Of a DNA stretch of 59,181 nt, positions 26,298-59,181 are shown piece by piece. Position 1 is the stretch's first letter. Each line of letters opens with the position of its first letter. The DNA comes from Rozella allomycis CSF55. Lineage: Eukaryota. The notes under the pieces are model-generated. The model searched no databases and was not told where the DNA came from. It saw nothing but the letters and a program-made list of their open reading frames with translations. The position numbers were made by a program, and so were the translations under genes. The DNA lies in NCBI GenBank assembly GCA_000442015.1, contig KE561226.1, forward strand, positions 1 to 59,181, in the 5' to 3' direction.

Positions 26298-26370
26298 TAT
26301 AAATAATTTTCACGGATTTATTTCTTTTAACCTTTATTGAGTGTCTTTTGAATCCAAGCCACCTGTATTA

Positions 26371-30476: not shown

Positions 30477-30530
30477 AGAGTTTAGATTTCAAATGTTAAA
30501 CTGTTATTTAAGATTTTCCGAAATATTACA

Positions 30531-32963: not shown

Positions 32964-32983
32964 CACATTTGCAAATTTATTAG

Positions 32984-35535: not shown

Positions 35536-35605
35536 TCAAACGATAAAAAATAAATACGAGGTGCCGTTTTGCCTAGCAACCGCATTTCGTTTTCCTTCAT
35601 ATTAA

Positions 35606-37081
35606 ATGCTGAATAACTTTTGTTGCTTTAAGTTTAAAAAATCCAAGATAACGCCAGAAACTAAAACAAATGTTAATATTATGTTAACTAGTGAAACCGG
35701 TAACAATACATTCTTGCATAAAGCTCAAAAATCTTTTTCAGATGGTTCAAAATCTTCTAGCAATAAATCTTTCAATTTAACTAATGAAGAGGTTAAGTCA
35801 AAGGCATTGGAATCATTTGGAGCTACTCGATTGGAATCTACGACCGTGTCAACACGTCAAGCTTTGTTGCGGCGAAGATGGTCATTACCAGCAGAGGTGC
35901 CATTCCAACAATCAAGCTCTAAGCATGATAAGAAAGCTTTGACAATGAAGAAATTAGTCAGCAAAGAAGAAGAAACTTCTAGAAATATATTCAACAAAAC
36001 TGATTCCAATAGTATCTCATCGAAAAAATCCAACTCTAGCTCAAAACACAGCGCTATATCCAGCCCAACTGTCCCGAGTATCATGGAAGCGGATGACGAC
36101 TTGCAAGTCCTGGATGAAATAGAAAAGGAGATGTTCCCTAATTTGAGCAATCAATCTAATGACACAGAAGTTCAAACTCCAACCAAAGAAAATCCTCGAA
36201 GAACAATAAGAACAGACCTCTCTAGATCCGGAAGCATTGTTTCAGAGAAGTCTATTCAACAAAGCGTTGTAATTATGTCCCCTGGTGGACCGATAGAAGT
36301 ATCTATTGAATCACTTAAGAGTATAAATGGAAATGCAAACTATAATGATGCGGTGGGCGCAACATCTCCCAATGAAGATCGTAGGAACTCAATATCGAGT
36401 TATTCCAATATACCGGCATTAAAACTTTCCTCTACATCTAATGTCTCAAATTCTTCAAGAAGGACTAGAAGAAGTTCAGTTGGATCTTTAAGACCATCCT
36501 TGACTCCACAGAGTAGAGCATCCGAACCTGATGGGTCGCAGTCAATATCTTTTGGAGTTTCAATGCTAAAATTCGAGTCTGAATTAAAAAAGAAGTTAAC
36601 CCCGAAAAGAATTAGACCGGATAAAGTTATAATTCAAAAGCACTCGATTGGGAAGGAGATGTACTTTCTTTTATCTGGGACAGTCCAAGTACTATCGGGC
36701 GATGGGAAAAGAGTTTACAACACAATAAAGGAAGGCTCGTTTTTTGGAGAGCTTGGGGTACTATTTAATGTACCGAGAACCGCCACAATTAAATCTGTTG
36801 GATGGTGCACTTGCCTTATATTAACGAGGAAGGATTTAGAGGACACTTTAACGAACTATCCTGAAATTGCTGAACGTTTTCGAATGATAGCAGAAACAAG
36901 AATGTTACAAGTCAGCGCCGCGAGAACCAGAAAGCAACGAATGGACCACATTAATATAAAGTTAGACGTTCCAGGTACACTAAACGGTAACATCATATTG
37001 AAATAGAAAAGATTAGAAGAACAGGAACCTCAAACGACTGAAAAGAATCCAGATGCTAATAAAGATGAACAAGTTTTGTAA
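35606..37081 (+). CDS. Cyclic nucleotide-binding domain protein with Ser-rich N-region
   Basis: GKEMYFLLSGTVQV..GSFFGELGVLFNVPRTATIKS cNMP cassette. A probable 30-nt terminal intron extends the ORF from 37006 to 37081. Confidence 0.85.
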
Positions 37082-37674: not shown

Positions 37675-40067
37675 TTATGAAAAATTGGCTTTATATTTTT
37701 TCATCTCTATCATCACTGACTGAATATTTATGGGATCTACTTTTAATTTTTGCGAGCTCTTTTTTCCAACTTTCTTTTCCAATGCCATCAAAAACCTTTG
37801 ATAGCACAATATGGTTTCCTTAAATATACTTTGCAGAATGTCAGTTCCAGTTTTGAGGTTGGGGAAAGAACGTAGACTATTATTACTTATCTCTGATAAA
37901 GACTGTTGCCAAGAAGAATTAAAAAAACTAATTGTTAATTCTAAAAGTTCTATAACATATTTACAGTTTGGCTTACCTGGCGAAGTGTTTACAGGATCCT
38001 TTTCCAACTCACCCAAGCAATCAATAAGTTTGCCAAAATGGGATTTCAATTCAGCATCTTTGTACTCATTTAAGTATGTGTTTAATAAATTGTTAAAATT
38101 TTCCTTCGCCTCGTACACAGCTGTTGTATTCAACTCTGTCAAAACAGCACAAATTAGGTCAAAATTGTTTATCAGGAATATAAGCTGCTCCTTTGTATTA
38201 GTGAATCCATTTGAAAACTTTTGAATGTATGCCTTGAATTCGCTATTTAATCTTTCCAGACTATTCAATATCGCAGGATCATTGTAACCTTCATTCAAGA
38301 TTAATATCGATCCAAAGAATTCAGAAAACTTTCTGGTAACCTTAAATTTTTTAGACTTAAAATGTTTACATGTGTGTTGTGAATATCTGAAGGCGAAACC
38401 TGACGTAATTCTATTTTTCGTAGGCTATTGGTATGTTGTTCAATAATAGATTGATATCTAGGCCAAAGAATTATGTTGAGTTGATTAAAAAACGAATCTA
38501 AACAAGTTAATTTCTTTCTTTGCACGATTTTCATATTTTCTGAGTTTATTCTAATACACAACAAAACAGCCAGGGCATCAGCAGTCAAATCAACATATTG
38601 CTTTATTGAAGTTTGAATTAATCTTAAAGTTGGGCCAAATATTATGAAAAATAAATCCAATTTTCCTTCCATTGACTGATGGGATTCTTGAAAATAATCA
38701 CAAAGGAAATTAAACTCTGAACATGAATTATCGATCAAAAGTTTGTTTAAACTTGCAAACAAAACTTCAAATGTGAATTTCTTACTATAAATTAGAACAT
38801 GTCTATTACTTGATTCTTTTCTTCCGCTATGTGTGGCAAAATTGGATTTGAATCAAGGTTCTGGAGAATATTCTTCCTGTCTCCCAATGTAAATACATTT
38901 CCTTTATCTTTTTGTTTTGAACTGCTGAATGAAAACCCCTTTCTTGCTATCTCAATTGACCCGATCAAATCACTTTTATCGGCTATGACAGTCTATGTAA
39001 AGTTTCCAAGAATGTTACTTGAAGCCTAAGAAGAGAATTAATGTAGTTTGTAAAATGATGTTCGTAATAACCCATCACCACCTCAAAGTATCCAACCACA
39101 ACTTCCCTTGCTACAATTGGCAAATGACGCACGAGAAATGCATACATAGATTTGTTTTTTACTAAAATTTGTTGCAATGCAGCCAAATTAGTTCTTAAAA
39201 ATCTTATCTGCCTAAATTTGTCGACAAAGAAGTCGTATATTTTCTCTCCTGCCTTGATCTTCAATTTCTCAAATTCTGGGGTTATATCAATAACAGCTTT
39301 TAGTTCGACATATTCATCTTTCTTTAAATAAAGTAGATGCCCTGATAAAGCATTAAGAGCCCTATGAAATTCTGAATCAATTTCTCCTTGAAAAATGCAC
39401 TTGATCATTTCAGCAGGTATCACGAGTTCTTTTAACAAGCCTTGAAGTTTAATTTGAACTTCCTGGATTATAGAAACCAAATAAACATACCTTTCTATTT
39501 CTCAACTTTACATTCAACTTGTTTGATTCATTATGAAGCCTTTGAATATCTGAACTCATGTTCTTTATGTTTAGTTGAAATTGAAGCAAAAGAGCTTCCA
39601 TTGTCTCTAAAACTCTATCGCAGGCCTTTCTTGTAAAAATCCATCGCATTACTTTCACTTCTTGATCCAATTTCTTCAATGTTTCACTTTGATCAATATC
39701 TAATTGATATAATTAAAACCAATTCTTACAATCTTTTAAATGACTCTTTTCAATGTTTTGAAGCTCTTTGTCAATCTCTTTTGCGTAATCCCTTAAATCA
39801 ACCCCGTTGGCGATGGCGCTTTTTATTCTGCTGTCTTCATAAAATTCTGACAAACGATCTATATCTGCAAATATTTGAAAATACCCCCAATGTTTTCTGC
39901 AGATTCAATTATTGATTTTCCTTCGTCAATTATCGAGTTTTGTTGATTTTTCCATTTTTCAAACTATGATTGAATTTAATCAAGCTCTATACTTCATTTT
40001 CATCTATATCATTAAAAATACTGGAGAGCAAAGGAACATGACTCCATGTCAATGTTTCTTGATTCAT
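37675..40067 (-). CDS. VPS52: GARP complex subunit Vps52
   Basis: GVDLRDYAKEIDKEL, CDRVLETMEALLLQFQ..MSSDIQRL, PEFEKLKIKA, LIDNSCSEFNF, LWPRYQ and LIFLINNFDLI. Start codon less certain. Confidence 0.9.
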
Positions 40068-40174
40068 TAACGGAATTTTCCACTAAAAACAAAAATATGG
40101 CAAATTTGGCCTCAATTCTAAGAATGTTTAAAAAAAATACTTTATAGGAGATAGTTTTATATTTTTATTAATAT

Positions 40175-40608
40175 TTACATTCCTAATATTTTGAAATCAT
40201 TATTTGAATATGCCTTCTTTAGCAGATCTTCATATTCTCTGTAGCTCTCCTCGGCCATTTTCAGCATTTCTTCACAAAGATGCAAAGCATTTTCTGGTGT
40301 AATTGGTGTTGTTGCATCAACGTCTTTGCATTTTCCATAGTGCTGAATCTTTTCACAATAGTCTTTCACTTTGGTAATCCCTAAAGCAGCAGAGCTTCCT
40401 TTTAAAAAATGACCTAACTTTGACACCTCTATTAAATTATTCTCTTTTCTATGTTATGCGAAAAGTTTAATACATACATCGCATTTCTCATGGACTCAAA
40501 GGTGGATGTTGCTTGCTCAAAATAGTTAGTCACAAGATCTTTGGAAAATTCATGGTCGTCATTTTCATCCATCATTAAAATCTGCTCGAAAACCTCAATG
40601 TCAATCAT
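40175..40608 (-). CDS. YPD1: Histidine phosphotransfer (Hpt) protein, Ypd1-like
   Basis: IDIEVFEQILMMD..HEFSKDLV.NYFEQA and LGHFLKGSSAALG..CEKIQHYG. One 29-nt intron. Confidence 0.93.
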
Positions 40609-40815
40609 GGAAAAACAAATTTCAGAAATTTCACGCTTGAATATCAAACGTCATCAGATTAATAGATTAATATTTTTTTGCCATATTTGATTAAAATGAA
40701 ATCCAACATATTTTATTGTAAAAGAACGGTAACTGTAACTGTTTATTTAAAACTAAATACTTAATAGTCAATTCTATAATTTTGATGTCATTCTACATTT
40801 TGCAGTCCTAAATTG

Positions 40816-41709
40816 TCATTCAGTTGTTGGTATACTTGTATATTTAATATTTTGCGCTTGCGGCGAGTAATTTTCATCTTCGTTACTGTCTTTGTATAAT
40901 TTGTCAACCTTTTTCGCCTTATCATCAACTTTTAACAGGAAGTCTTGAATGATTTCAACTTTCTCGTTGGCTTCTTTTTGAATTTGTAGCATTCGTTCTT
41001 GGTTTTCCAATTCCGAAAAGTAATTTATAGCATCACCAACGAAGTGGCTAGTGAGATAATACGTACCAGTACAACCTAATAAGAATGCAGGAATCCAAAG
41101 AGTATGCAGTCCGATTCTATCGTATGAAATGCATCCTATAGTAGCACCTAATATGTAACCTAAAAACAAAGGAATAAACACACCAAATTTCCAATTATCT
41201 TTCGCTTTTCCTCGCTTGAAAATAATCTGGGCGGTAAGTGTACCAAGATCAGTCAAAATTCCAGTCATATGTGTCGTTCGTAGCACTGCTCCACTATACA
41301 CTGAAGCCATGGCATTTTGTAAACCACTTGAAAATGCTAAAAGAAATTGACCTAGAATGCTCCCATTGTGAAGAACAAGATATCCCAATAGAATAGAAAA
41401 GGTTTCTGTGATCATAACCCAACCATAACTTCGAGCGAGCTTGAAATTTCCGGCGCCATCTTGTACAATCAGGCCAGATGTCAAACTACCTATCCAAAAC
41501 GAGCAAATAAGGCCAAAATGAGATGCTAGCTTTGAAGTATTAGTACGAGCAAAATCTATTCCAATGTTTGTAACAGTTCCAGTTACGTGAGTAACAGGAA
41601 CCGACAGAAAACTTGAAAGTGAAATTGAATTTATCATTCCCGCAACAAAAGAAAGAATTGAACCCCCAGTAACAACTATAGCGAATTCTTTTCTTTCAAA
41701 GGTATTCAT
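40816..41709 (-). CDS. DUF1275/YoaK-family multi-pass membrane protein
   Basis: LSFVAGMIN, VTHVTG, GLQNA and RTTHMTGILTDLG motifs with about six TM helices. Intronless. Confidence 0.85.
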   Translation of the reverse strand: MNTFERKEFAIVVTGGSILSFVAGMINSISLSSFLSVPVTHVTGTVTNIGIDFARTNTSKLASHFGLICSFWIGSLTSGLIVQDGAGNFKLARSYGWVMITETFSILLGYLVLHNGSILGQFLLAFSSGLQNAMASVYSGAVLRTTHMTGILTDLGTLTAQIIFKRGKAKDNWKFGVFIPLFLGYILGATIGCISYDRIGLHTLWIPAFLLGCTGTYYLTSHFVGDAINYFSELENQERMLQIQKEANEKVEIIQDFLLKVDDKAKKVDKLYKDSNEDENYSPQAQNIKYTSIPTTE

Positions 41710-41824
41710 TTAAATATTCCTTCGGGAAATATTCTTCCTCGTTCATAAGCAGTTTCCGAATTTTTGGTGGCGCTTTTGTAAAATTTCTTTTCATCCCATT
41801 GCCCCTGGTTAAAGCATTTAAAAA

Positions 41825-42322
<498 letters not shown>

Positions 42323-42431
42323 ATAAAATATATTTCATTTTTTCACATTTGCGGTAAACTTTATAATGGAGTAATACAATCAATAAATTGGAATGTAAAA
42401 AGTTGCGTAAACCTGTATCTTCGGAGATTTA

Positions 42432-44321
42432 ATGAAGAGTAGAACTTCGTTTATTGCCGAAAAGCCTTCAATAAGCAACAATGATCTACTTCTTAAAAAT
42501 GGTTTGAGCATTGATGGCAATCAAAATCTTTCACGAGTGTCATGGAGTAAATCAATCGCATTTGCAGAACACAGCGATGCGAAGCAAGAACTTAATCAAA
42601 TGGACTCTATCGTATTTGAATCTAGCGTTAATATACAACAAGATGTTTCCACTAAGAAAAGAAAAGAGTTACAGGAAAGAATTCAAATCCTAAAAAGAAA
42701 ATTGAGAGTTCTAGTGAGAACCATGATAAATTCTGCCAGAATGGAAAAGAATAATGAAGTAAATAGAGATTCCTTCATTGCAATTGGAAAATCTAATACT
42801 AATCTCTCTCCTCTCATTGCTGTTCGCGACGAAAGACCAACTTTCCAAGTCGATGACTATAAAGTGAAGAAACAAAATTTGATGATTACTGATAATCTAA
42901 TTAATACAGTATTAAGGAAACAACCAGAAAATAGATCAGAGGCGGATTTTATAACGATTGATCAATTAGTTCAAACGATTCCGTACTTTAAGTCTTATGC
43001 CAGATTTCCTGTGTTAAGAAGGCAAATCAGCAAATCTCTTGTTTTTCAAAAGTTTGAAAGAGGGCGGGTTATTCTTAAGCAAGGTCATCATCCTCCTTGT
43101 TTTGTTTATTTCATTATCAAAGGGCATGTTTCGGTTACTCGTATTGCAACAAGTGATGGCAAGACTAGTGAATGGACAAAGACATTAAAAGAGGGTTGTA
43201 CGTTCGGGGATCTTGAAGTTAAACATGACATACCCAGGGTTGCTACAATTACAGTTCTAACTGATGAAGTATATTTGTTCATGATGCATCAGGAAGCATT
43301 CATTCCATTAATTTCTTCTTTTTCATCTCAACTCAATGAAGAAAACGCAAAGATGATTAAAAGTATTCCATCTCTAAAAGACTTGCCGGATGATATCATT
43401 CAAGCATTAGCAAAAGAATGCTTTGTTGGTGATTTCCCATACCATAGTTTAATAATAAGACAACGAGAGTGGTACCCTGAACATGTGTATTTTGTTCTTA
43501 AGGGTAAGTGCAGCGTGGTGAGAGCAGTCGGGGTGAGGAACAGTATTAACTCTTCTAGCCGAAATTACAGTCTTGCATCTCAATCTTCCAGTAATGTTGC
43601 ACTTCTTCAAGCGACTACTATTGATGTTGGCGGTATGTTTGGAGATGAGAGCATGTTTCTTCTTCCAAATATCCCAGATAGAAAGTCATGCCTACGAGAA
43701 CATGTTGGGTACCCAGTGGTGTTTTCAAGTTTTGAAAAGTATAATGAAAATGCTGCCAAATCAAATAAGAGTATAGAATTAACTGAAGAAGATATACAGC
43801 AAGTGTTTGATTTCCAAGCAATTTCAAATAGAAACAGAGCAGTACAAGAAAATGAATACAAGGATACCACCATTTCCTTGAACTTTAGAAAAAGGAACAG
43901 CATTGCTCCAGTCGCATGTTACAGAAAGAATATTTTTAGTGTGATGCCAATCTCGCAAGTACAATGTTTGTTGCTGCCAAAAGTACATCTGCTCAAAACT
44001 TTAGATGATATTCAATACAAAGAGCTACAATACAAATCGTTTAGTCATAACTTGATGAGACTAATTAGCGAAGAATCAATAGCAGAAAATCACACGCCTA
44101 TCGATCATAGATGTCAAATTTACCGACCTACTTCAATCATAAAACCTGAAGGTTTTGACGATAGATTGGGATCCCAAACACTATATTTACGCAAAGAGGC
44201 TCATCACATGGCGTACGATCCATTTGAAGCCATGATTGATATGACGCTTTGGAAATCTTATCAAAGACAAGAAGAATGGCAAAGATATAGAAACGATTTA
44301 CTTAAAAGATCACATAAATAA
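42432..44321 (+). CDS. Protein with two cyclic nucleotide-binding domains (CNBD2-like)
   Basis: GRVILKQGH..YFIIKGHV..GCTFGDL..PRVATI and a second unit LIIRQ..VYFVLKGKC..GGMFGD. Intronless, 629 aa. Confidence 0.8.
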   Translation: MKSRTSFIAEKPSISNNDLLLKNGLSIDGNQNLSRVSWSKSIAFAEHSDAKQELNQMDSIVFESSVNIQQDVSTKKRKELQERIQILKRKLRVLVRTMINSARMEKNNEVNRDSFIAIGKSNTNLSPLIAVRDERPTFQVDDYKVKKQNLMITDNLINTVLRKQPENRSEADFITIDQLVQTIPYFKSYARFPVLRRQISKSLVFQKFERGRVILKQGHHPPCFVYFIIKGHVSVTRIATSDGKTSEWTKTLKEGCTFGDLEVKHDIPRVATITVLTDEVYLFMMHQEAFIPLISSFSSQLNEENAKMIKSIPSLKDLPDDIIQALAKECFVGDFPYHSLIIRQREWYPEHVYFVLKGKCSVVRAVGVRNSINSSSRNYSLASQSSSNVALLQATTIDVGGMFGDESMFLLPNIPDRKSCLREHVGYPVVFSSFEKYNENAAKSNKSIELTEEDIQQVFDFQAISNRNRAVQENEYKDTTISLNFRKRNSIAPVACYRKNIFSVMPISQVQCLLLPKVHLLKTLDDIQYKELQYKSFSHNLMRLISEESIAENHTPIDHRCQIYRPTSIIKPEGFDDRLGSQTLYLRKEAHHMAYDPFEAMIDMTLWKSYQRQEEWQRYRNDLLKRSHK

Positions 44322-44338
44322 CTTTAGCTGATTTTATT

Positions 44339-44596
44339 CTAGTTTCTTTTCTGCGCTTTCGGAACTCCAACAGTTATTGATGGCACTAATGCGCCCAATT
44401 TCATACCCACCATTTCTTCTCTAACGATTAAAGGTAAAAACTTGTGCCCGTTGTGTACATAGAGCTTTGCACCAACAAAGCCTGGTATTATGGTACAGTT
44501 CCTGCTGTAAGTCTGCACCCCAGCCTTTGTAACATCCTTTTTTATTGCTTCATAGAGGTTTAAGTCAACAAACGGACCTTTCCATTTTGCCCTCAT
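44339..44596 (-). CDS. RSM19: Mitochondrial ribosomal protein uS19
   Basis: WKGPFV, TYSRNCTIIPGFVG, VHNGHKF and EEMVGMKLG. Confidence 0.92.
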   Translation of the reverse strand: MRAKWKGPFVDLNLYEAIKKDVTKAGVQTYSRNCTIIPGFVGAKLYVHNGHKFLPLIVREEMVGMKLGALVPSITVGVPKAQKRN

Positions 44597-44743
44597 TGTT
44601 CAGATTGAACCTACAAGGGTTCATATCCAATTTTCTAATCACCAATCGCCATTAACAATTAAACTTCTTTGAAATATGCATATTTCATTATTATACGCAA
44701 TCATTTTTTAAATAGCTTCTCGTTGTAATTTTCAGGAAAACAA

Positions 44744-45189
44744 ATGAGTGACGAAACTAATGAATCTTACGATTCAATTCCTAGTTTCTCGATTGAGGAT
44801 TTTGAAATGCCTAAATCTAGCATTTTTAAAATGCTAAAGGAAGAATTTAACTCGACAGTACAAATACACAAAGACACGAAGAATGTAATATCAAAAATTT
44901 TAATAGTATTTGTCTGCTTCCTAACAAATGAGTAATTCCCCTTATAACATTTATTAGGGCTGGTAAGATCGCATCAAAGAAAGGACAAAAGTCGCTCTCA
45001 GCGAAGCATGTTCTGGAGGCGCTGAAAAGTATTGAATATCCAGAATTCGTAGATGAAATTCAAAGTAAGTTTCTGTATTTATAAAAAGTAGGTACTTTAA
45101 GTCTTCGTAAATCAGGTAAAGGCCCAACTGTTACAGAACCTTCGCAGGTCGATTCTTTAGACCAAGCGCGTACAGATCAAAGCATATAA
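44744..45189 (+). CDS. Histone-fold NF-YB-type protein, DPB4/POLE3-like (NC2-beta not excluded)
   Basis: IEDFEMPKS..KMLKE..VFVCFLTNEA..KSLSAKHVLEALKSIEYPEFV. Introns 44932-44957 and 45065-45091. Confidence 0.75.
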
Positions 45190-45274
45190 TAATTAATAAA
45201 TTTTTTCCGTTAATTACACTTTTCAGGATGCCAGTCACATCATTAGTCGACTCAGCCCCTCTGAACCAATTCAT

Positions 45275-45842
45275 ATGTCTCACAGAGAGATTGATATTGA
45301 TGCTTATGACGAAGATCAATATATAGACGAAGAAGTAAATCAAATTTCCAATTACGTACAATAATTATACACGTTCGTTACTTATAGGATACAAAGTTAA
45401 CCCAGGCCGGTGCAAATATCAAACAATTATTACAAAAGTAACAAATTTCTTACTTTTTAACCTAAAGAAATGATATTTTAAATGCTTTGCAGGTGATTTT
45501 AGAATCTCCAATCGAAGGGAAGAATGTCCCACAATCAATAAAGGTAACTCGCTTATCATTAATGATGATACCAGGATAAACAACTGAGCATGTTAATGGA
45601 TATATTACAATGTGCAAAATCTCAAGAAGTTTTGTCAATTATTAAAGGACTGACAAGTTCACATCATGATACGCTGATGAAATTCATTTACAATGGTATG
45701 GCACGTCCAGAAATATATCAACCACCTTTATTGCTGTTATGGCACGAAAAAGTAACTTTGAACGCATTTTATTCTGTAGATTGTGGAGCATACTGGGCTT
45801 GGAACGATTATTAGGGTATTGACGGATAAACATAGTGTTTAA
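45275..45842 (+). CDS. ARPC5: Arp2/3 complex subunit 5
   Basis: REIDIDAYDEDQY, DTLMKFIYNGMARP, LLLWHEK|IVEHTGLGTIIRVLTD. Four introns. Confidence 0.93.
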
Positions 45843-45898
45843 TTTAAATATAACATAGTGTTTAATTTAAATTATTTTCACTTCAAGTGTTTAAGACT

Positions 45899-47692
45899 TT
45901 ATTTATTAGTTTGTTTTTCATAAAAAAGAAGATAAGCCTCCTTTGATACCAAAGCTGGTTTCCCCAACTTTGAGTCCTTGTCGTTAACAATGTACCATTT
46001 TTCATTAAGCTTAACATTGGCATAATAGTGGCCATTTGATAGAGTGCCATTATGATTACAAATCGCGAAAAGCTCGTAACTTAGATCTAATTTTGAACAA
46101 TGATTTTGATCACTTTGCTGTTCTGGGACATCTGCTCCCAAGGCATTAATATTCAATAATTCAGGAAGTACTATTTGAGTATTTAACTTTTCTAATTTGT
46201 CTTCTATTTGAATGAAACGTTTCAATTCTATTTAATGATCAATGTGTCACCTTACGAATGACCAGTATTTGAGGATGAGTTATAACAGACATTTTCTTTT
46301 CAATCATTTGCGCCTTAGTACACTGTGAACATACGTAGTTTGCGCTTTTGTCTATTATTTCAGAGGAAAAAAAGGTCTCCAAGCAATCCTCAAGGTTCAC
46401 TTTAGTAGGTGGCCCCTTCAAACTAACAAGTACTCTTTGTTACTTCTTCGGATAATGTTGCAATAGGAATTTATAAATCCCAAAATTGGTCAAAAGATTT
46501 GGAAATATGAAAGCATTTACAGCAAGTTACCTTACTCTCTAGCATTCCGCAAAATATATCAGAAAGAAAGCTGTTTGAGACCAAATGCTGCTTTTTCCAT
46601 AGAAAATCGGATTTTATAACGTTCCTATACAATCATTTGGAAGGCGGTACGGTAAAGAATCTACATCTTTTTGTTTAAAGTTAAATTTTGCGTTAAACTT
46701 CACTCTATTCATTTCATCATGTAATAGAACTAAAAGAGAGTTCAAAAATTCATGGGCATCATGCTGTCTGAGTTTTTGAATTTTGTTTGCTTTTACTCGT
46801 TTCCTTGAAAAGTAGAATTATGATTCTCAACTATCGATTTGATGCTAGAACCATCACAAATACTAGTGGATATCCAATATTGCCTTAACCAATTTTCAAA
46901 TGCTATATTGATTCCAAATGATTAATACTAGTGATAACTACACTCGCATTCGGTTTCTTATTCTTAAAGTACACCACTAGTGGTTTTATACAAGACAAGC
47001 ATTGCAAAACAGCGTTTATGTAACACTTGTACCAAAAGAATAAATATTATACAGTGTTTCCAAGATTTTGAAGACCTACAGGTGCATTAATATCTTCAGG
47101 ATTGTATTTTTTCATTAACTATGTCGTTACGGCTGTTATAATTACCGCTTCAATATCTCTCCTAAAAAGCGCTAGATCTATTTTTAAGACATCATTAATT
47201 GAGAAAGTTTTGTCTGGCTTCCCCAGCACTGTCAATGCTTTGTCAATATCTGGTGTCATAGGGGATTTTAAAGGCGCCTGGATTGCTGGAAATTGTTTTG
47301 AAGGAATTGGTGATTTCGGCGAAAACTCTTTGGATGCGTTTTGTGGAGGCGAGACATTAATTGTTAATGAATTATTCTTTTTCATTTTTTCTGGAGCTGA
47401 TAGTTTATACTCTTCTTTCGATGACAATGAATCACTAGATCCAGTATAATTTCCTCTAGCTTTGGGTTTAAAAGACAATGGTTTTTCTTTCTTCTTTTTT
47501 GCACTCTTATTCTTTCCTTCATTAAGTCTTTCAATAGAACTATTCAGTTTCTAAGCTTTCAAAATATATGAAAAATTATACTTTCGTGCCTAAAGCGCTT
47601 GTCTTTGGTTCATCATTAAGTGGTTCTAAATTAGCATCCGGTGATTTATCTTTGAGACCACCTTTAAGGAGGTTCAATTTGAAAGATTTCAT
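45899..47692 (-). CDS. Ubiquitin-specific protease (peptidase C19)
   Basis: Cys box GLQNLGNT|CYINAVLQCL, QHDAHEF, and His box CNHNGTLSNGHYYA..WYIVND..AYLLFYEK. Multiple short introns. Confidence 0.92.
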
Positions 47693-47835
47693 TTTTGTCG
47701 GTAACCAGGACACTGCCAACAAGATGCGGAATCTAACTTATTTACGGCACTGTATTTGGTAAAATTATGAGTATACAATCATTTATGTAATGTGAATATG
47801 ACAGACTACTATCTTTTGAAATAGATTTCTTTATT

Positions 47836-48950
47836 ATGACAACGAGAAAATCAAGAGAGTCAAAGAACACTTGGTTTTCTATCGCCCTCCAAGATCACAT
47901 TGTCAAGGAATTAGATCTTGGACTAGGCATAAAAAGTAAACTCTCGCGCTAAAATTAAGAGGATTTAATAAGAAATATAAATGTTCAACCCGTTTGAAAA
48001 AATATGTAGACTCTTCACAAGCTTCACAAGAAAGGGTACTTGATGAACGTGACACATTTCGTTCTTTGGCTCATGAAATAGGCCTAATTGATTATTCCAA
48101 TGGCAAACTTACAGAAGAGAATTGGCAAAACATAAAAGTTAAAAGTCATGATCGAGGCACTAATTTTGATTCATGTCCCGTTTGCCAAGAAGGATGGCAT
48201 TTAGGAACTCAAGTATACATTAAAATTAAAAGAGATAAGGTATTATTAAGTTGCAGTCATTCATTCCATTTAAAATGTATTAAAACGTATGAAACGCACA
48301 TATCCAAGAAATGCTGTCCAATATGCCGAGAGACAAATTATAGTAAAAGGGTTATATTTGAAGGCAAAAAACGAGCAATGGAAATGTCAGCGATACTGTA
48401 AGATGCATATTAGAATTACACTATAGAATCCAAAAAGTATACCGCGGATACAAAACAAGAAAGCAATTCAGAAACATATTACAAAGTCAAGAGCCGATAA
48501 ATAAAAGGTGGAAGAAGATACATTATGAGGACAAGGTAAAATATTCTTTTTAGTTATCATCTGTGCATGAGAATAGGAGAAACAATGGATGCCACTCTGC
48601 AAGAAGACTCAATGGAACTGTCAAATTTTCTTGATGAAATGGACGAAATCATTAACCGTTCGAAATCAGTTAATTTAGAATCTACCGATGAAAAGTCTAA
48701 AGAAGACACACTATGGGATAGGATTGAAGAGTCTTTTCGGGAGCATCAGCAGGATTCATGTCCTATTTGTTTAGAGCAACTTTGGAAAATGAATAATCCG
48801 TTCAGGAAGACATACATTTTGAGTTGCTCGCATGCGTATCACGGGACATGTATTAAAAACTTTGAGAAATTCAGTTCAAGTTTGAAATGCCCTGTTTGCA
48901 GAACTGAATATACAAGAAAAGAAATAAGACAAGAAATAAAGGATCATTAA
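47836..48950 (+). CDS. RNF32: RING finger protein 32-like (two RING-H2 domains and an IQ motif)
   Basis: N-terminal ALQDH, two CPxC...LSCSHxxHxxC...CPxCR fingers, separated by IQKVYRGY. Confidence 0.85.
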
Positions 48951-48986
48951 TGCAAGTACCATAATGGGTTAATCATATTCAATTTA

Positions 48987-51732
48987 TTAAAACAAATTAG
49001 TGATCCATTGATATATTCTGTTTTCATTTTTCTTTCTTTTAGATCTCTTTTGTTTGGTATTGGCGCTGATTATGGAGGCGTTACTTTCTTTAAATTGGTG
49101 GAAATGTTTATCCAACTCTTTCATTTGCAAAGACTGATCAACGAGAGGCTTGTAAGAAACATTCAGTGTTGAAATCAAGAATGCATATTCATAAGCAAGT
49201 TCCTATTAGAAACCAAAAATGAATTTTACATCAAGATGGCTGTACTGACCAGATGAGCCGCCGTGCCCACTATCTTCAATTCTGAGGATTAAAAGATTTG
49301 AATCAGTTTTGTAATCACGTAACTTTGCAACAAATTTTGCTGGTTCAAAGTATGCAACTCTTGGATCATTCATTCCACCAACAACCAGCATGTTGGGATA
49401 CGCTTGGTTAGATATATTAGAGTATGGACAATAAGCTTTCATGGCATTGTAAATCTTTTTGTCTTTTGGATTGCCCCACTACAAAAATATAAAGCTATTG
49501 TTGTTACTTCTTCATATTCAAAAGCAGTCCATGGAATGGATGAATCAAACATTGTGTTAATAACATCCACAAATGGAACTTCAGTAAGAACAGCTTTAAA
49601 CAGATCTGGCCTTTGATTGACAACTGCGCCAATTAATAAGCCACCAGCAGATCTTCCATAGATTGATAACTTTTCAGTGCAAGTGTAGCCTTCTTTAATA
49701 AGAAATTCAGTGCAGCTAATAAAATCATTGAAAGTGTTTTGCTTTTTCAATAATTTGCCTTCAGAATACCAAGGCATTCCCATGTCTGCACCCCCGCGAA
49801 CATGAGCAATGGCGTAAATGAATCCACGATCAAGTAAGCTTAATCTGTTGGAGTTGAATATGGGAGAAATACATCCACCATAGGCGCCATAAGCATACAA
49901 GAGACATGGATTAGGGTTTTGTTCTTTATACAATAAATCCTATAATGATAAAGATGAATAAATACTTTTCTGTAAACAAGAGACATTGGAATTGCAGTTC
50001 CATCAATCCCAGTAGCAAATAATCTTTTTTGAGCGTATTTAGAACGATCATAGTTGGTAACCACTTGCATGTGAACAATGGAACTAGTTTTGTCATCCAT
50101 ATTATAATCAATGACTTGTTTAGGATCAACAAGAGAAGTAAATGTATATCTAAGAATGTTTGACTCAAACAATGATTGTTTATTCAAATCAGCGCTTTCT
50201 TCAGCTATCGTTCCCAACCAAATTGAATAAACAAGATCAGAGAATGAAACGTAATGATAGTTTTCAAAATTATTTGAATCTGAAATATCAATTATTCTCA
50301 AGTTTTGGAGACAATTGCTTCTTTCAAGTAAAATCAAATGTTTTTGTCTCATTTGAAGTTCTTCTATATACACAAAATCTCTATGTTCAATTACAATTGT
50401 TCTAGACTGTTCTATTAACGGAGCCTTTACAGGAATTCTAAACAAGAAATTGTTTTTGACATTTTCATTTGAAAGAATATAAAAGAATCCATTATGATGT
50501 TCACAAGTATAATTAACATACTTCTTTCTCGGATAAACAACAACTGGCTCTCCTTCGGGGTCATCAAAAGAAATGAACCTTGTTTCAGATGTGATTTGAG
50601 CGCTGGAATTTATAAACAAATAATTCCCATCGCATGATTTATTTAACGTTAAAAAGAACATTTCATCTTTCTCTTCCAACAGCAAAACATCTTCTGATAT
50701 CATTTTTCCAATTTCATGTCTTTTCAATTGGAACGCCCTCTCAGTATCATCCAACAGCAAATAATAAACAAATCTTCCACACCGAGAAAAATGCAATCCA
50801 CCTTCAGATACATTTTCTAAAACTTCGCTTAAAACTTTTCCAGAATCCTTATTCTTAAAATAAACCGTATATCGTTCATTCCCAGCCAAATCTACTCCAT
50901 ACGCAATCAAATCATTCGCTTGACAATGCCTCAAAAATCCCACATTAAAGAATGTGGTTTCATTATTCAATTCTGATGCCAATAGATTTTCATTCAAATA
51001 AACTTGTTCAACATTGTTTGAAGAAATTCTACAATGCAGAGAATACTCTTCACCTTCAATTCTTTTGGTGTAATATGTGTATCCATCCTTTAAAGTAACT
51101 TTGGGTGATTCTTCATTTTCATCAATTCTACTGATGAATTCTTGATACAAGACCTGTTGAATTTGCATTATTTGTTTCTTACTTTTTGCAACACTGAAGT
51201 ATGAGCCATTGCTTCCTCCGAATATCTATTCTCAGATTCCAAATACTTTATCAAATCTGGATCCTCTCTATTGGTAAAATACGCATAATCGTCATTAAAT
51301 GTATCCCCATGCACATTCACAATACTGGTGCTCTTCTTGACAGCCCGTGGTGGATCTATTTGCACCGGACACGCAATTTGCCCCCTTCGTCTACTTTACT
51401 CTACTCCCAGTCACTTACACAGACTCCTCCAATATCCCCTTCAATTTACACCACGAATCCAAATACGTCTCTGGCGCATTCCTAGTAAGGTTCACAATAG
51501 CACTGGCTATATCAGGCACCATCTGGATAAAATTATTGCTGCTCTTTGATACATACGCGTCCATGTTGTCTAATGTGTCCTTTTTCATGTATTGCGTGTT
51601 TACAGGATTGAAAAGAGAAGATGCGGATAGCTTTCTTGTTAATGGGGTGCCTGGCTGTTTAGATGATATAGATGATCGGAATGTCATTTTGTATATTGGT
51701 CGGATCCAATTCACCCAGGGTCTTGAGCGCAT
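48987..51732 (-). CDS. Oligopeptidase B-like prolyl oligopeptidase family protein (S9A) with N-terminal extension
   Basis: VHGDTFNDDY..YLESEN, YAYGAYG, RLSLLDRG, catalytic GRSAGG / NDPRV / SGHGG, VPFVDV and YEE|WGNP. Five introns of 26-29 nt. Confidence 0.92.
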
Positions 51733-52000
51733 ATGCTAAATTAAGATTTGATGGAATAAATATTTCAGTTTTGTTATTCTAAAAGGTTAAGATGTTCGGA
51801 TTACATGACCATGAGAATAATTACCAGAATAAATCTTACGAGAATTGTTGCTTTATTAAATCGCTGATGAATAGATACTTTCTGAATCCTTTTAATATAT
51901 ATCTAACTACCGTCTTTCAACCATTAACGTTCAACTATACAAAATTATTCTCGGCCCTGATATAAATAGAGTGTCGACCCTGGACACATTTGTTGACGAT

Positions 52001-55000
52001 ATGAGTGAACGCATACCTATAATATTCAAGGAGCACTTGCAGGTAAGCTTTAAAAATATCCAAATAAAGCTCCAAAACATTGGTGTGAATGCAGCAAACA
52101 TAGGCTTCAACACTTTGACTATGGAATCGGACAAGTACATTTGTATTCGCGAAAAGGTTGGCGAGCAGAACCAGTTGGTGATAATCGACATGGGCGATGT
52201 ATCCAACCCGTTGCGCCGTCCTATATCCGCTGATTCAGCGATTATGAATCCGGCATCCAAGGTGATTGCACTGAAAGGTAGATGGTTTGTTTCTGGATAA
52301 TGTAGCTGGCAAGCAGTTGCAGATATTTAATTTGGAGCTCAAGGCCAAGATAAAGTCGTTCATGTTGAGCGACGATGTGGTGTTTTGGAAGTGGATTAAT
52401 GTGAACACTATTGGGATGGTGACGGAGAGTGCTGTGTTTCATTGGAGCATGGAGGGGGAGAGCAATCCGGTCAAGGTGTTTGATCGGCATGCGTCGTTGA
52501 ATGGGTGCCAGATTATCAATTATAGGACGAATGAGGAGGGCAGCTGGATGTTCTTGGTGGGGATATCTGCGCAACAGGGAAGAGTTGTTGGATCGGTGCA
52601 GTTGTATTCAAAGGAGAGGAGTGTGTCGCAGCCTATTGAGGGACATGCTGCGGCCTTTGCAGAGATAAAGTTGGATGGCGCGATGTATCCTACAAAGTTG
52701 TTTACGTTTGCGGTGAGAAGTCAGATGGGTGCAAAGGTAATTGAGTGGGTGTGGTTAGAGTAGCTTCATTTAATTGAGATTGATCACAAGGAGGGGAATC
52801 CTGTGTTTGCCAAGAAGAATGTTGATATATTTTTCCCGCCCGAGGCTGTGAATGATTTTCCAGTTTCGATGCAAGTTTCAAGCAAATACAATGTGATATT
52901 TTTAGTTACTAAATATGGTTTTTTGCATATTTATGATGTTGAGAGTGGAATGTGTTTGTATATGAACAGGATATCAGCTGATACGATATTTGTGACTGCA
53001 GATTATGAGACTACGAGTGGGATGATTGGAGTGAATAGAAAGGGGCAAGTAACGATTAATGGTTGAAAAGAAAGGTGTTGTCTGTGAGTATTGATGAGCA
53101 AAACATTGTGCCATATATTTTGCAGCAGATGAATAATCCCGAGTTGGCTATAAGAATAGCATCTAGAAATAATTTGCCTGGTGCTGATGAATTGTATGTT
53201 GGTAGATTTAATCAGCTTGTTCAAATGGGAAATATGTCAGAGGCTGCCAAAGTAGCTGCAACGTCACCAAAGGTATAGAATGATTTGTGTTTGGAATCAA
53301 GGGGATATTGAGAACTCCACAAACAATAGAAAAGTTTAAGCAAATGCAGGTAAGAATGTAGATATGGATTGAGAGGTGCAACCGGGACAAGTTCCGCCAA
53401 TTTTGCAATACTTTGGAATATTGTTAGAAAAGGGAGATTTGAACAAGTATGAATCTATTGAGCTAGCGAGACCTGTGTTGATGCAAGGGAAGAAGCAGTT
53501 GTTGGAGAAATGGTTGAAAGAGAATAAGTTGGAGTGTAGTGAAGAGTTGGGAGACATTGTGAAGCAGCAAGATGTGATGTTGAGTTTGAGTGTTTATTTG
53601 AGGGCGAACATCCCACATAAAGTGATTCAGTGTTTTGCAGAGACTGGACAGTTTAATAAGATTGTGTTGTATGCCAAGAAAGTTGGGTATCAGCCAGACT
53701 ATTTATTCTTGCTGCAAACTATTTTGAGAGTGAATGGAGAAAAGGGAGTAGAATTTGCGCAAGAGTTGGTTAAGAGTGAAGGAGGCCCATTGTTGACTTT
53801 GGAGCAAATAACTGAATGTTTTATTACAGCTGGTATGGTTCAGCAACTGACAGCGTTTTTATTGGAAGCATTGAAGGAGAATAAACCAGAGCAAGGTGGA
53901 TTGCAAACTAGGTTGATAGAGATGAATTTGATGCAAGCGCCGCAAGTAGCAGATGCTATATTGGGCAATCAAATGTTTAGTCATTATGATAAGAACAGTG
54001 TAGCTCAGATGTGTGAAAAGGTTGGATTGTATCAAAGAGCGTTGGAACATTATACTGACATTTATGATATAAAGAGGACAATAGTGCATACACATTTGTT
54101 GAATCCAGAAGTAAAATGATTTGAGTGAGATGATTGTAGTGGGTAGTTGGGTTTTTTGGCAAGTTGTCAGTTGAGCAGAGTATGGAATGTTTGAAAGAAA
54201 TGTTGAATAACAATATAAGACAGAATCTGCAGATTGTGATTCAAGTTGCAACTAAATATTCAGATTTAATTGGAGCACAAAATTTGATTGAATTGTTTGA
54301 ATCATTCAAGAGTTATGAAGGTAAGATTGATTTAATTTAATTTGTTATTAGGATTGTATTATTATTTGGGATCTATTGTGAATTTTAGCCAAGATGGGAA
54401 TGTGCATTTCAAGTATATCCAAGCAGCGTGTAGAACAGGACAGATGAAGGAAGTTGAAAGGATTTGCCGGGAGAGTGGAGTGATTGATGGAGAAAAAGTG
54501 AAGAATTATTTAAAGGAAGCGAAACTGAATGACCAATTGCCATTGATTATCGTTTGTGATCGATTTAATTTTGTGCATGATTTGGTATTGTACCTTTATA
54601 AGAACAATCTACCTAAATATATTGAAATTTATGTGCAAAAGGTGAATCCAAGTAGAACTCCAGCAGTTATAGGAGCATTGTTGGATGTTGATTGTGAAGA
54701 GAATATAATAAAGTCATTGTTGATGAGTGTGAGAGGGAATATTCCTATTGATGAATTGTGTACTCAAGTGGAGCAAAGAAATAGATTAAAAGTAAATTGT
54801 TAATGAGTAAGAAAAGAGATTATATTGCCATTCTTGGAGATGAAGATAAAGGAGGGAACTAGTGACCAGAATGTGTATAATGGGATTGCCAAGATTTACA
54901 TTGATAGCAACAATAATCCTGAATCATTCTTAAAAGAAAACAAGGTAATGCAATTTATATTTTAATATAGGTAATGATAAAGTAAACTCCCAGATTAGAT

Positions 55001-57681
55001 GTATGATCCATTGGTGGTTGGAAAGTATTGTGAAAAGAGAGATCCCTATTTGGCATTTATAGCATATGAACAAGGGAGATGTGACAAGGAAGTTATTAAA
55101 ATAACAAATGAGAATCAAATGTTTAAACACCAAGCAAGATATTTGGTAAAGAGAAGAGATATTGAATTGTGGATGAGTGTGTTGATTGATAATCCCTTCA
55201 AGAGAGAATTGATAGATCAAGTAGAATAAATAGATTGAATTTAAAAGGTTGTAGGAATAGCGTTGCCAGAAACACAAGATCCAGAAGATGTGTCAGTTAC
55301 TGTTAAAGCGTTTATGAATGCAGAATTGCCAAATGAGTTGATTGAATTATTAGAAAAGATTGTTTTGGAATCATCAGTGTTTAGTGATAATAGAAATCTG
55401 CAGAATTTGTTGATATTGACTGCGATTCAAGCTAATCCAACTAAAGTGTTGGAGTTTGTGCAGAGATTGGACAACTATGATGGGCCAGATATAGCCAATA
55501 TAGCAGTTGGAAATGGATTGTATGAAGAAGCATTCATCATCTACAAGAAATACAATATTTATGAGAATGCAATTAGAGTGTTGATTGAGAATATAAAGAA
55601 TGTAGAGAGGGGACAGGAATATGCGAATCAAGTTGATCAATCCATTGTGTGGTCTATCTTGGCAAAGGCGCAGTTGGAAGAAAAGAGAATTAAAGAGAGT
55701 GTTGAATCTTATTTGAAAGCGAGTGATGCTTCTAATTATGAGCAAGTGTTGAGTGTGTTGAAAGAGATTGGAGAATATGAACAATTGATTAAATATCTGA
55801 GAATGGCTAAAACAAAGAGCAGAGAATCTATTATTGAATCAGAATTACTCTACTGTTTAGCCATGACAAATAGAATTGCTGAAATTGAAGAATTTTTATC
55901 AAATACAAATATAGCTAATGTGGAAATGGTTGGAGATCGATTATATGAACAAGAAATGTATCTTCCTGCTAAAATATTGTTTAATTCAATTTCCAACTAT
56001 GCTAAATTAGCGTCAACGTTGGTTCATTTGAAAGAGTACCAGCAGGCTGTTGAGTGTGCTAGAAAAGCTAATAGTACAAGGTTAGTTTAATTGATTGTTT
56101 AAATTTGTAGAGTTTGGAACCAGGTTATTGTTGCTTGTATTGAAATGAAAGAGTTTAGATTGGCTCAGATCTGTGGGTTGAATTTGATTGTGCATGCGGA
56201 AGAATTGTCTGTTGTTATAAAGTTGTATGAGCAGAATGGATTTATTGAAGAATTAACGAATCTATTAGAAAGTGGACTAGGTAATTAATAGTAGTTATAT
56301 GTTAAATAGGTAATTGATAGTACCTCTCTCTATAATGTTAGGTAATTACTTTCAACTTCACTAACTCATAGGTATGGAAAGAGCTCATATGGGGTTGTTT
56401 ACAGAGTTGGCGATTGTTTATTCAAAATATAAACCAGAAAGATTGATGGATCATTTGAAATTGTATTATTCAAGAATCAATATACCCAAAGTTATTAAAT
56501 CAGTTGAATTGGCACACATGTGGCAAGAATTAGTATTTCTGTACATCCATTATGAAGAATTTGACAATGCAGCACTTTCAATAATAAAATATTCAGCAGA
56601 CGCTTGGGATCATGATCAATTTAAAAATGTTTTATTAAAAGTTTCGAATTCTGACATTTTCTACAAGGTAAATTCTGTTAAGATATAAGAGAAAAAGAGT
56701 TTGAATTTCTATTTGAATGAACATCCATTATTGTTGAATGATTTATTAAATTCAATCAGCCAAAAGATTGATTACACAAGGCTAGTTCAAATATTTCAAA
56801 AGAATAATCATCTTCCATTAATCAAACCATTTCTACAAACAATTCAACAAGTAAACTTTTGAATTTTGAATTTTAAAGATTAATAATCCAACTGTTAACA
56901 TGGCATTCAATCAACTATTAATAGATGAAGAAGATTACAACGCTTTAAGAATCTCTATTGACTCTTTTGAAAACTTTGATTCTATTTCATTGGCTGTTTC
57001 TCTAGAAAATCATCCATTAATTGAATTTAGAAGAATTTCTGCTTATTTATACAAAAAGAATAAGAGATACAAGCAATCTGTTACTCTGTCAAAGAAGGAT
57101 TTGTTGTTCAAAGATGCAATGGAAACAGCTGCAGAGTCTAGAGACTATGAGACGGCTGAAGAGTTGTTGAAATATTTTGTCAAGAATAACAAAAAGGTAC
57201 GTGAAAAGTTTAAATGTTATATTAGGTAAAGTTGTTTAATTGTATTTATAATAGGTAAAGTTGTTTAATTGTTTATAATAATAGGTAATCAAAGTATTTA
57301 ATCACTTCAAAATAGGAATATTTTAGTGCTTGTCTTTATATCTGCTATGATTTGTTAAGACCTGACGTTGTTATGGAATTGTCTTGGAGATTCGGTTTAA
57401 TGGACTTTGCTATGCCATTCATGTGTCAAACTATGCGTGAGTACATGACAAAGGTATTTCATTCAATTCATCCATCAGTAGATTGAAACATTAGAGAAAC
57501 ACAACAATGAACGAAATCAAAAAGAAGAAGAAGCTGAAAAAAGAGCCATTGACAATTCAATCATCAGAGGTACTCTTTTAACTAATTTATTTCTATAGGT
57601 GCTCCTTTGATGCTTACTAATGGTCCTGTATCAATTCCAAACACTTCTCAAGCTCAAATGCCATTCATCCCTCAATGGTAA
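52001..57681 (+). CDS. CHC1: Clathrin heavy chain
   Basis: [78 protein letters not shown] and PLMLT. 18 intron positions comprising 24 GT-AG units of 26-32 nt. Confidence 0.98.
54945..54998 (+). other. Tandem micro-intron pair (26+28 nt), zero-length exon
   Basis: AAG|gtaatg...aatatag|gtaatg...gattag|ATG. Flanking exons join as LKENK-MYDPLVV. Confidence 0.8.
56281..56371 (+). other. Tandem micro-intron triplet (29+32+30 nt)
   Basis: Three consecutive GTAATT...TAG units. Flanking exons join as [12 protein letters not shown]. Confidence 0.85.
57197..57315 (+). other. Tandem micro-intron quadruplet (29+29+30+31 nt)
   Basis: Four consecutive GTA...TAG units. Flanking exons join as [13 protein letters not shown]. 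Confidence 0.85.
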
Positions 57682-57758
57682 TAAATGGTTAAAGATTTTA
57701 AACTATTCAAATATTTCATACTATCAATTTCACTTGGAATGATCACATTTAAATTTGT

Positions 57759-58888
57759 TTATTTTTTACTACTCCAAAAGTGCTTGATAACATCAGTCAA
57801 AGTAACAACACCAATCAACTTTCTATCTTCATCAATAATCCACACCCTATGAGACTTTGTCGCTATAATCTTTCTCATAGCAAACCCTAGTGATGACTTT
57901 AACGTCACCTCAAACACTGGGAATCTATCCTTGCCTTCATTCTGCAATCCCTCCTGCGTCAACACCAACGACACAAAATGTGAACACGTTTGCCATAATC
58001 TCGAATATCTATTTTGCTTCAATATATACTATTCAATCATTAACATCCCACTTACCTTGATATCCGTCATTGATATATTCCCAACAAGCGATTCACCACT
58101 ACCAGCATCAACAACCGCAACCGAAGATATCCCCTTGGCACTCATCAAACTCAAAGCTTCAAGCACCGGAGCCTCACTATTCACCGAAATCACAGGATTA
58201 TTTCCAAATCCCAGCTCTCCAAGCGTCTTTGACGCAAACGCATTCAACTCTGGTTGCTACTCTACAATCATCCCTCCAATTACCTACCATCCTCAACCAC
58301 TACACCTCTTACCTTCATCAACAGTCCCGCCAGATACTTGACCACATCAGTCTGCGACAACACACCCACAACCTCGCCATCCCTCATCACATTCAGCCGA
58401 TGCACACCCTTCCCACTCGCCAGTATCTCCGCAGCCTCTTTCAACGGCGCATCAGCACTAACACTATAAAACGGATTCTTCTTTGACAAGTCTACTCTAC
58501 ACTCCACCAATCCCATACCAGCAGCCACACGCATCGACATCTTATTCACATCCATCGTAATCGCCTTGCGCACCACATCCCTAATATCCATCGTCTCGTC
58601 TTCAGGCACCCGCTCAAGCTCCCGGTGCTTGAAAACCATCAACACATAGTCCGCAATGTCGCGGTAGTCGAACATTCCAACATACTTTTTTAAGGCGGAA
58701 TCGTACACCGGCGCAGACGATATCTTGTGGCTCACAAGAACCTGGAATTTATATAGTGTTTGGTTACCTAGCTCAGTTAAAATTGATGGACGTACCTCAC
58801 AACCGTCTTCAATGGAATGGTCCGCATCGATTATTACTACCTTTTGGGAGGAAACTAGCTCGGAACATTGGATGTGCCACAAATCCAT
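57759..58888 (-). CDS. CBS-domain protein, SDS23/AMPK-gamma-like
   Basis: Four CBS repeats: ISSAPVYD..VGMFDYRD, GVHRLNV..GVLSQTD, GISSVAVVD..LVGNISMTDIK and SHRVWIIDE..IGVVTLTDVI. Confidence 0.88.
58257..58312 (-). other. Tandem micro-intron pair (29+27 nt)
   Basis: AAG|gtaaga...tggtag|gtaatt...gagtag|CAA. Removing both units restores the frame LMK-QPELNAF. Confidence 0.8.
58742..58795 (-). other. Tandem micro-intron pair (28+26 nt)
   Basis: GAG|gtacgt...agctag|gtaacc...ttccag|GTT. Removal gives a normally spaced CBS helix EDGCE-VLVSHKISSAP. Confidence 0.75.
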
Positions 58889-59181
58889 TTTTGGTTTACG
58901 AAATTTGGAAATTTGGGATTGCTAGGTGGAGAATTTAGTTAGGATTATTTTAAAATCCGTTCTTTTGTGAGTTGGCGCATTTCTCCTGTCTTTTGAATAT
59001 ACTATATTAAAGGCATTTTTACTTGAATATCCATTCAATGATAAACGCAGCTATAGTCAACGAGGCGTCAAGGATATGAAGTAATTACTATCGTTTTCAA
59101 TCATTTGTAAGTTTTCCCAAAGATACCTTGGAGTACATTAATACATTTATTCATTTTTTGAAGATTGCTATGAAGTTTTGG

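Follow-up and report, generated by a model that had tools for sequence, protein, structure and literature searches.

Tandem arrays of mini-introns without intervening exon bases in two convergent genes of Rozella allomycis

How do genes whose introns are otherwise 26–31 nucleotides (nt) long come to hold introns of 54–119 nt, and in how many steps are these removed? The question arises in Rozella allomycis, a member of the cryptomycetes that parasitizes the water mould Allomyces. It is posed by a stretch of 59,181 nt from Rozella allomycis CSF55 (assembly GCA_000442015.1, contig KE561226.1, positions 1 to 59,181 of the forward strand; the whole stretch is called the window below), near one end of which two convergent genes, for clathrin heavy chain and for a CBS-domain protein, carry five such introns. 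Each of the five divides without remainder into two to four units of ordinary intron size that lie end to end, every unit having GT and AG ends of its own. These compound introns are called arrays here, and their positions, with those of the two genes, are:

52001–57681, + strand: clathrin heavy chain gene; the mapping ends at 57678 and is followed by TAA
57759–58888, − strand: CBS-domain gene, convergent with the clathrin gene; mapped from 58888 to 57762 (protein P0121)
54945–54998, + strand: array 1, 54 nt, after clathrin residue 898, phase 0; units 54945–54970 (26 nt) and 54971–54998 (28 nt)
56281–56371, + strand: array 2, 91 nt, at clathrin residue 1306, phase 1; units 56281–56309 (29 nt), 56310–56341 (32 nt) and 56342–56371 (30 nt)
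57197–57315, + strand: array 3, 119 nt, at clathrin residue 1562, phase 0; units 57197–57225 (29 nt), 57226–57254 (29 nt), 57255–57284 (30 nt) and 57285–57315 (31 nt)
58742–58795, − strand: array 4, 54 nt, in the CBS-domain gene; units 58768–58795 (28 nt) and 58742–58767 (26 nt)
58257–58312, − strand: array 5, 56 nt, in the CBS-domain gene; units 58284–58312 (29 nt) and 58257–58283 (27 nt)

Both genes were mapped by threading the annotated protein letter for letter onto the DNA, with GT..AG gaps permitted and the shortest tried first. The clathrin protein (P0002, 1664 residues) and the CBS-domain protein (348 residues) are each 100% identical to the translated DNA. The genetic code is the standard one, and ordinary stop codons close both genes. 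In the clathrin gene there are 24 GT..AG units across 18 sites, made up of 15 single introns (26–31 nt) and three arrays, while the CBS-domain gene has four intron sites, two of them arrays and two of them single introns of 27 nt. The two genes together thus provide 17 single introns of 26–31 nt to set beside the five arrays. The convergent stop codons are 77 nt apart (57679–57761), so that the 3' ends of the two genes must nearly touch or overlap.

The arrays (54, 91, 119, 54 and 56 nt) split exactly into 13 GTA...AG units of 26–32 nt, and unit size therefore matches that of the single introns (26–31 nt, n = 17). All 13 units start with GTA and 11 with GTAA; 12 end in TAG and one in CAG. The corresponding figures for the single introns are 16 of 17 for GTA, 11 of 17 for GTAA and nine of 17 for TAG. 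At each of the eight internal junctions a TAG directly abuts a GTAA (the junction reads TAG/GTAATG in array 1 and TAG/GTAATT in array 5), and the exon upstream of the array ends in AG in all five cases. This is the layout of a zero-length exon: the 3' site abuts the 5' site, so that excision of one unit regenerates a 5' site. Each unit has the ends of a U2-type GT-AG intron with the consensus of the host's introns, and in all five arrays removal of the whole is needed for the conserved reading frame. A TRAY motif lies within −16 to −4 of the 3' site in six of the 13 units and in five of the 17 single introns, Rozella being without a clear branch consensus. A first-pass annotation, made from the sequence alone, had placed five arrays here, with units of ordinary intron size that start with GTA and end in AG, eight TAG/GTA junctions and five upstream exons ending in AG. 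Protein mapping and ortholog alignments bear out the arrays and their coordinates, the unit ends, unit size and exon ends hold as described, and all eight junctions carry the longer motif TAG/GTAA.

Could such a decomposition be accidental in DNA of this composition (31–41% G+C in 2-kb windows along the contig)? Each array was shuffled 20,000 times with mononucleotide and again with dinucleotide composition preserved, a split into GT..AG units of 24–34 nt being scored as a success. Mononucleotide and dinucleotide shuffles gave 279 and 186 successes for array 1, 4 and 49 for array 2, 0 and 2 for array 3, and 147 and 195 for array 4, whereas array 5, which is G-rich and the weakest case, gave 2832 and 485. 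Chance decomposition thus occurs in at most 1.4% of shuffles for four arrays and in 2–14% for array 5; taken together, the five cannot be chance. Across both strands of the window there are 12 copies of the heptamer TAGGTAA, where 5.9 would be expected, and nine of the 12 lie within 54968–58770.

The next step is to establish that no exon bases lie between the units. In an alignment (MAFFT) of 13 clathrin orthologs from fungi and animals, the 15 residues on each side of the three array sites are free of gaps, so that no codon can sit between units. The same alignment excludes an alternative path through array 2 that would use introns of 20 nt and two exons, one of 9 nt and one of 21 nt. Array 4 is stop-free and a multiple of three, and the public annotation translates its 54 nt as 18 residues. 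Exactly those 18 residues are missing from all five of the five chytrid CBS orthologs, and the alignment becomes gapless once they are removed; the intronic model of the first-pass annotation is therefore better than the public one. Array 5 is spliced out in the annotated protein, and no gap interrupts the ortholog alignment at the junction, although conservation is low in this region; the alternative found there by path search requires a 4-nt exon and weaker donors. The earlier claim that no exonic bases separate the units accordingly holds against 13 orthologs for clathrin and five for the CBS-domain protein, with array 5 in a poorly conserved stretch.

The same evidence bears on whether the arrays are an artefact, either of mis-assembly or of gene models in which some units are really coding micro-exons. 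The contig does have 12 N positions, one of them in the midst of a carrier-gene segment that is duplicated, and the annotation mis-calls two introns as coding. However, there is no N within 52–59 kb, the units are diverged copies rather than collapsed or expanded identical repeats, and the 13 clathrin and five CBS orthologs leave no residues between units, all of which makes an artefact very improbable. The two single introns of the CBS-domain gene are:

58029–58055, − strand: single 27-nt intron, from the spliced mapping of the annotated protein
58492–58518, − strand: probable unannotated single 27-nt intron (GTA...TAG), without a stop codon and of a length divisible by three, exactly where the orthologs show a gap of 9 residues

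The public CBS model carries 18 + 9 residues that are missing from all five chytrid orthologs. Gene models of Rozella can err in this way because introns and arrays may be stop-free multiples of three, and they may often retain such introns. The practical consequence is that annotated Rozella proteins may include translated introns, as the CBS-domain protein does.

Where do the units come from? Array 3 gives the clearest answer. Tandem Repeats Finder (TRF) reports a period of 29 with 2.4–2.7 copies and 85–90% matches at 57208–57288, and the units 57226–57254 and 57255–57284 reach an identity of 0.88 once the splice ends are trimmed. Array 3 records a recent duplication of an entire intron, in register. 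The remaining within-array pairs are 0.50–0.62 identical (array 5 having been cut 3 nt off register in this comparison), beside a background mean of 0.52 (SD 0.09) for 394 unrelated unit pairs, and TRF finds no tandem repeat at a score of at least 30 in arrays 1, 2, 4 and 5. Even so, GTAATT opens all three units of array 2 and GTAATG both units of array 1, while the 17 single introns have 15 different 5' hexamers, a hint that the units within arrays 1 and 2 descend from a common ancestor and have kept their 5' sites. The proposal that arrays arise by intron duplication, which was part of the first-pass annotation, thus stands for array 3 on both the repeat and the near-identical pair; for the others, with pairs near background identity, a duplication origin is plausible.

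The low similarity of most units suggests another origin, in which the diverged units were inserted independently at the AG/GT of existing intron boundaries, for example by reverse splicing or in the manner of introners. In most cases two units of one array resemble each other no more than unrelated introns do, and the clathrin array sites, which are intron-free in related contigs (see below), are lineage-specific. Introns that are not adjacent can also be alike, the pair 58257–58283 and 52737–52763 being 0.82 identical. On the other side, the hexamers shared within arrays 1 and 2 speak for local duplication, as does the clear repeat of array 3, and an identity of 0.82 is in the range of non-intron candidates (which reach 0.80), no intron family being demonstrated. 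Independent insertion is accordingly improbable, though less so than an artefact. That pair belongs to a set of three G-rich 27-nt introns, at 58257–58283 (−), 52737–52763 (+) and 58492–58518 (−), with mutual identities of 0.73–0.82 and the common ending AGAGTAG. A search for intron families or a mobile-intron origin gave 0.82 as the best similarity, no better than to non-intron candidates, and this origin was rejected.

A further route to new introns starts from exon sequence. Tandem duplication of a segment containing AGGT, at an intron-length period, instantly creates a spliceable GT...AG segment and leaves the mRNA unchanged. On this model the intron should match the flanking exon sequence in cyclically permuted form, whereas in Rozella the duplicated unit is the intron itself. 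Over 22 sites, identity between intron and flank ranged from 0.21 to 0.59 (null mean 0.38), with two sites above the 95th percentile of the null (0.50) and none above the 99th (0.61), and an origin from a duplicated AGGT exon segment is not supported for these introns. The route is named as a proposed mechanism of intron gain in PMC7138796.

How, then, might the arrays be removed? An array would be a chain of complete, independently spliceable mini-introns of U2 type, in an organism that recognizes an intron across its own length of about 26–32 nt. Each GTAA 5' site would pair with the (T)AG that follows it most closely, and a single unit would be excised per step. Each excision would join the AG of the upstream exon to the GTAA of the next unit, yielding a fresh substrate behind what is effectively a zero-nucleotide exon, and the cycle would repeat until the array is gone. 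Since any order or pairing would lead to the same mRNA, an extra unit would be nearly neutral and duplications could persist. Arrays would then arise by in-register tandem duplication of whole introns, the interiors drifting while selection keeps every splice site; and if splicing is inefficient for longer introns, losing an internal junction would do harm, which would leave junctions intact despite drifted interiors. In short-intron fungi, splice sites are described as paired across the intron, with the smallest intron removed first (PMC7138796).

The junctions are where this scheme meets the data. Interiors have drifted to near background similarity yet the junctions are intact, which argues that the units have been kept spliceable. 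TAG is present on the 3' side of all eight junctions versus nine of 17 single introns (Fisher P = 0.026, for TAG alone), and GTAA on the 5' side in eight of eight versus 11 of 17. At the frequencies seen in single introns, the probability of eight TAG/GTAA junctions is about 2e-4 by our own arithmetic. These figures suggest selection acting on the internal splice sites, and from the sequence it seems fairly likely that the arrays are excised stepwise, unit by unit. A metatranscriptome run (word share 0.00) set against 39182–59181 yielded nine chance pieces of 23–31 nt and one meaningless joint, and is uninformative on expression as well as on splicing. Neither does the extra length of the arrays stem from a hosted RNA or from a structure bridging their ends, since there is no Rfam match at E <= 1 in 54800–58900 and no stable fold in the arrays (z-scores −0.69 to +1.39).

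If the arrays reflect the way this organism deals with introns, the rest of the contig should be informative. Chaining of open reading frames (ORFs) limited to introns of 22–36 nt gave 56 introns in 40 coding fragments; 36 of these introns lie outside the two genes, 32 of them with a length of 26–30 nt. The reversed sequence gave two fragments and no introns, and the narrow peak of intron length is therefore real. Raising the limit to 150 nt produced 41 long calls, but the reversed control gave 10 and many of the calls hop between genes via exons of 3–13 nt, and they were discarded. A census of ORF pairs covered 119 pairs, of which 56 can be joined by an intron of at most 36 nt and 63 need more. 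Of the latter, 27 are short-intron chains (the arrays among them) and 36 have no such path. About 10 of these 36 were inspected: some were places where one gene stops and another begins, others were antisense or nested ORFs, and one held a plausible intron of 38 nt. The last (9921–9958, − strand) is a GTA..AAG segment that forms the only link between ORFs of 128 and 448 codons, and would be the longest single intron seen if real. The pairs in which one gene ends and a new one starts are:

26275–26358: gene end, then new start
30432–30485: gene end, then new start
32865–32983: gene end, then new start
35506–35632: gene end, then new start
42315–42426: gene end, then new start

No non-modular intron longer than 38 nt was verified on the contig, by a census in which about 10 of the 36 remaining pairs were inspected and which cannot exclude such introns. 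Motif scan and chaining likewise gave no verified array in the 59-kb contig outside a region of 3.9 kb, in keeping with the earlier statement that the five arrays cluster in 4 kb across two convergent genes. Arrays make up five of the 22 intron sites in these genes versus none of 36 elsewhere, for which P is about 0.006 (our own hypergeometric arithmetic, post hoc and for a region chosen because of its arrays). The motif scan produced three further candidates, two of which are:

45065–45147, + strand: ambiguous array candidate, a 27-nt intron plus a 24-nt unit
6318–6370, − strand: array candidate, unverified

The first lies in a gene with a histone fold, presumably NC2-beta-like, where at 45065–45115 (+) a 27-nt intron abuts a GTA..CAG segment of 24 nt, which is divisible by three and has no stop codon. 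This segment may be a second unit or a coding tail, homology favoring neither. The third candidate, at 11137–11191 (−), has no coding flanks and was rejected.

A wider comparison was provided by 12 soil metagenome contigs found with the Rozella clathrin:

L030, L036, L037, L045, L046, L048–L052, L056 and L069: related clathrin contigs, 43–50% G+C

Their clathrin introns are 31–41 nt long and have a clear CTRAY branch motif, and the contigs probably represent uncultured rozellid-like fungi with a tiny-intron regime of their own. Intron positions 227, 388, 972 and 1249 of clathrin are common to Rozella and the soil contigs, as is 1608 by our own reading of a mis-joined row for L036. At the three clathrin array sites (residues 898, 1306 and 1562) there is no intron in any of the 12, which makes these sites lineage-specific. 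Three of the 12 contigs have an intron of 67–68 nt at residue 38, without an internal AG/GT junction. A motif scan of about 89 kb of the soil contigs found no arrays, 12 rows being read as an intron beside coding sequence or as antisense hits, and no CBS ortholog was found in the 12 contigs. The modular arrangement is not a trait of the wider group.

With these comparisons in hand, the main rival can be weighed: that each array is an ordinary long intron excised in a single step, its internal TAG/GTAA motifs being unused fossils of past tandem duplications. The final mRNA would be identical either way, four of the five arrays appear in the public annotation as one intron each, and the related contigs splice non-modular introns of 67–68 nt. 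Array 3 is recent, moreover, and its internal sites have had little time to decay. However, arrays 1, 2, 4 and 5 have diverged inside, yet their junctions are perfect and nearer to the consensus than those of the single introns, whereas unused sites should have decayed; nor does the contig have a verified non-modular intron of more than 38 nt. One-step removal suits array 3, which is recent, but sits badly with the diverged arrays, and as an account of the whole set it is unlikely.

Stepwise excision has difficulties of its own, and several points weigh against it. On the DNA evidence, a whole array may still be removed in one step. The uniformity of the TAG/GTAA junctions could partly be due to common descent and not to selection. 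Without the near-identical pair of array 3, the excess of within-array similarity is weak (Mann–Whitney P = 0.03), and because interior similarity is weak elsewhere, duplication is firmly shown for array 3 only. As TRAY is sparse, the completeness of each unit's signals is not fully judgeable. None of the 36 intron sites elsewhere on the contig is an array (apart from the one ambiguous candidate at 45065), although a general mechanism should leave arrays elsewhere too. Finally, non-modular introns of 67–68 nt in the relatives mean that a hard limit on length is no trait of the wider lineage.

These points bear most on the stronger statements made about the locus. The first-pass annotation had a spliceosome limited to introns of about 30 nt, which is reasonable as a conjecture, but the census cannot exclude long introns and the relatives splice introns of 67–68 nt. 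A fuller scheme, combining a length ruler that fails above about 35–40 nt with obligate recursive splicing and an active, nearly cost-free gain of introns by whole-intron duplication, is tentative and on balance doubtful. The description as a new splicing system was overstated: all signals are standard GT-AG, and zero-length exons are already known from recursive splicing. The arrays are ordinary GT-AG splicing on an unusual substrate.

Among known systems, one of the two closest is recursive splicing at ratchet points, which also involves zero-length exons and occurs in very long introns of animals (Ubx of Drosophila, and vertebrates). As there, the 3' site in the Rozella arrays abuts a 5' site (AG/GTAAGT-like), excision regenerates the 5' site and no exon bases are involved. 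The scale is very different, since recursively spliced segments measure kilobases to hundreds of kilobases whereas the Rozella units are 26–32 nt with up to four in a row. Unlike ratchet points, moreover, the Rozella units each have their own complete ends, and their stepwise use is a proposal. The stwintrons of fungi are the second case for comparison: two U2-type introns removed by consecutive standard splicing reactions, the smallest being chosen first through intron definition, for which an origin by small duplications of splice signals has been proposed (PMC7138796). A stwintron is nested, with one intron splitting the donor, branch or acceptor of the intron around it, which forces the order of removal (PMC7138796), whereas the Rozella units lie side by side, none interrupting the signals of another, and any order would work. 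The arrays are therefore not stwintrons, as every junction has a whole TAG acceptor on one side and a whole GTAA donor on the other, and removing one unit leaves the others complete.

Tiny introns are not confined to Rozella: the genomes of Paramecium and Stentor and the nucleomorphs of chlorarachniophytes have them as well, likewise with a narrow length distribution that implies recognition across the intron. In a fungal set that includes Rozella, median intron lengths run from 29 to 197 bp (PMC8042348), and Rozella has 2.5 introns per kb (PMC8476143). Its S23 gene, which lies within the window at about 41.9–42.3 kb, has two introns of about 30 nt (PMC6349667). A search of full-text literature, covering main texts, turned up no account of spliceosomal mini-introns arrayed end to end. 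The arrangement thus seems to be undescribed, as the first-pass annotation had supposed.

If the units are spliced singly, the arrays would be natural minimal substrates of recursive splicing, with two to four steps contained in 54–119 nt, and would provide direct evidence of the way in which a spliceosome gauges intron length where introns are tiny. A route of intron gain would be documented too, namely in-register duplication of whole introns with the mRNA left untouched. Whole-intron duplication bears on the long-standing question of the source of new introns.

Two other features of the window may be noted. The stop codon of an Npa1/URB1-like gene lies about 55 nt from the start codon of the next gene (30473–30531, + strand). 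The mitochondrial-carrier gene at 3285–3415 and 3481–3643 (+ strand) contains a near-duplicate of about 30 residues flanking a single N at 3456, and the 12 N positions all fall in the first 15 kb, with none after 14429; both the duplicate and the N positions look like an artefact of assembly or masking.

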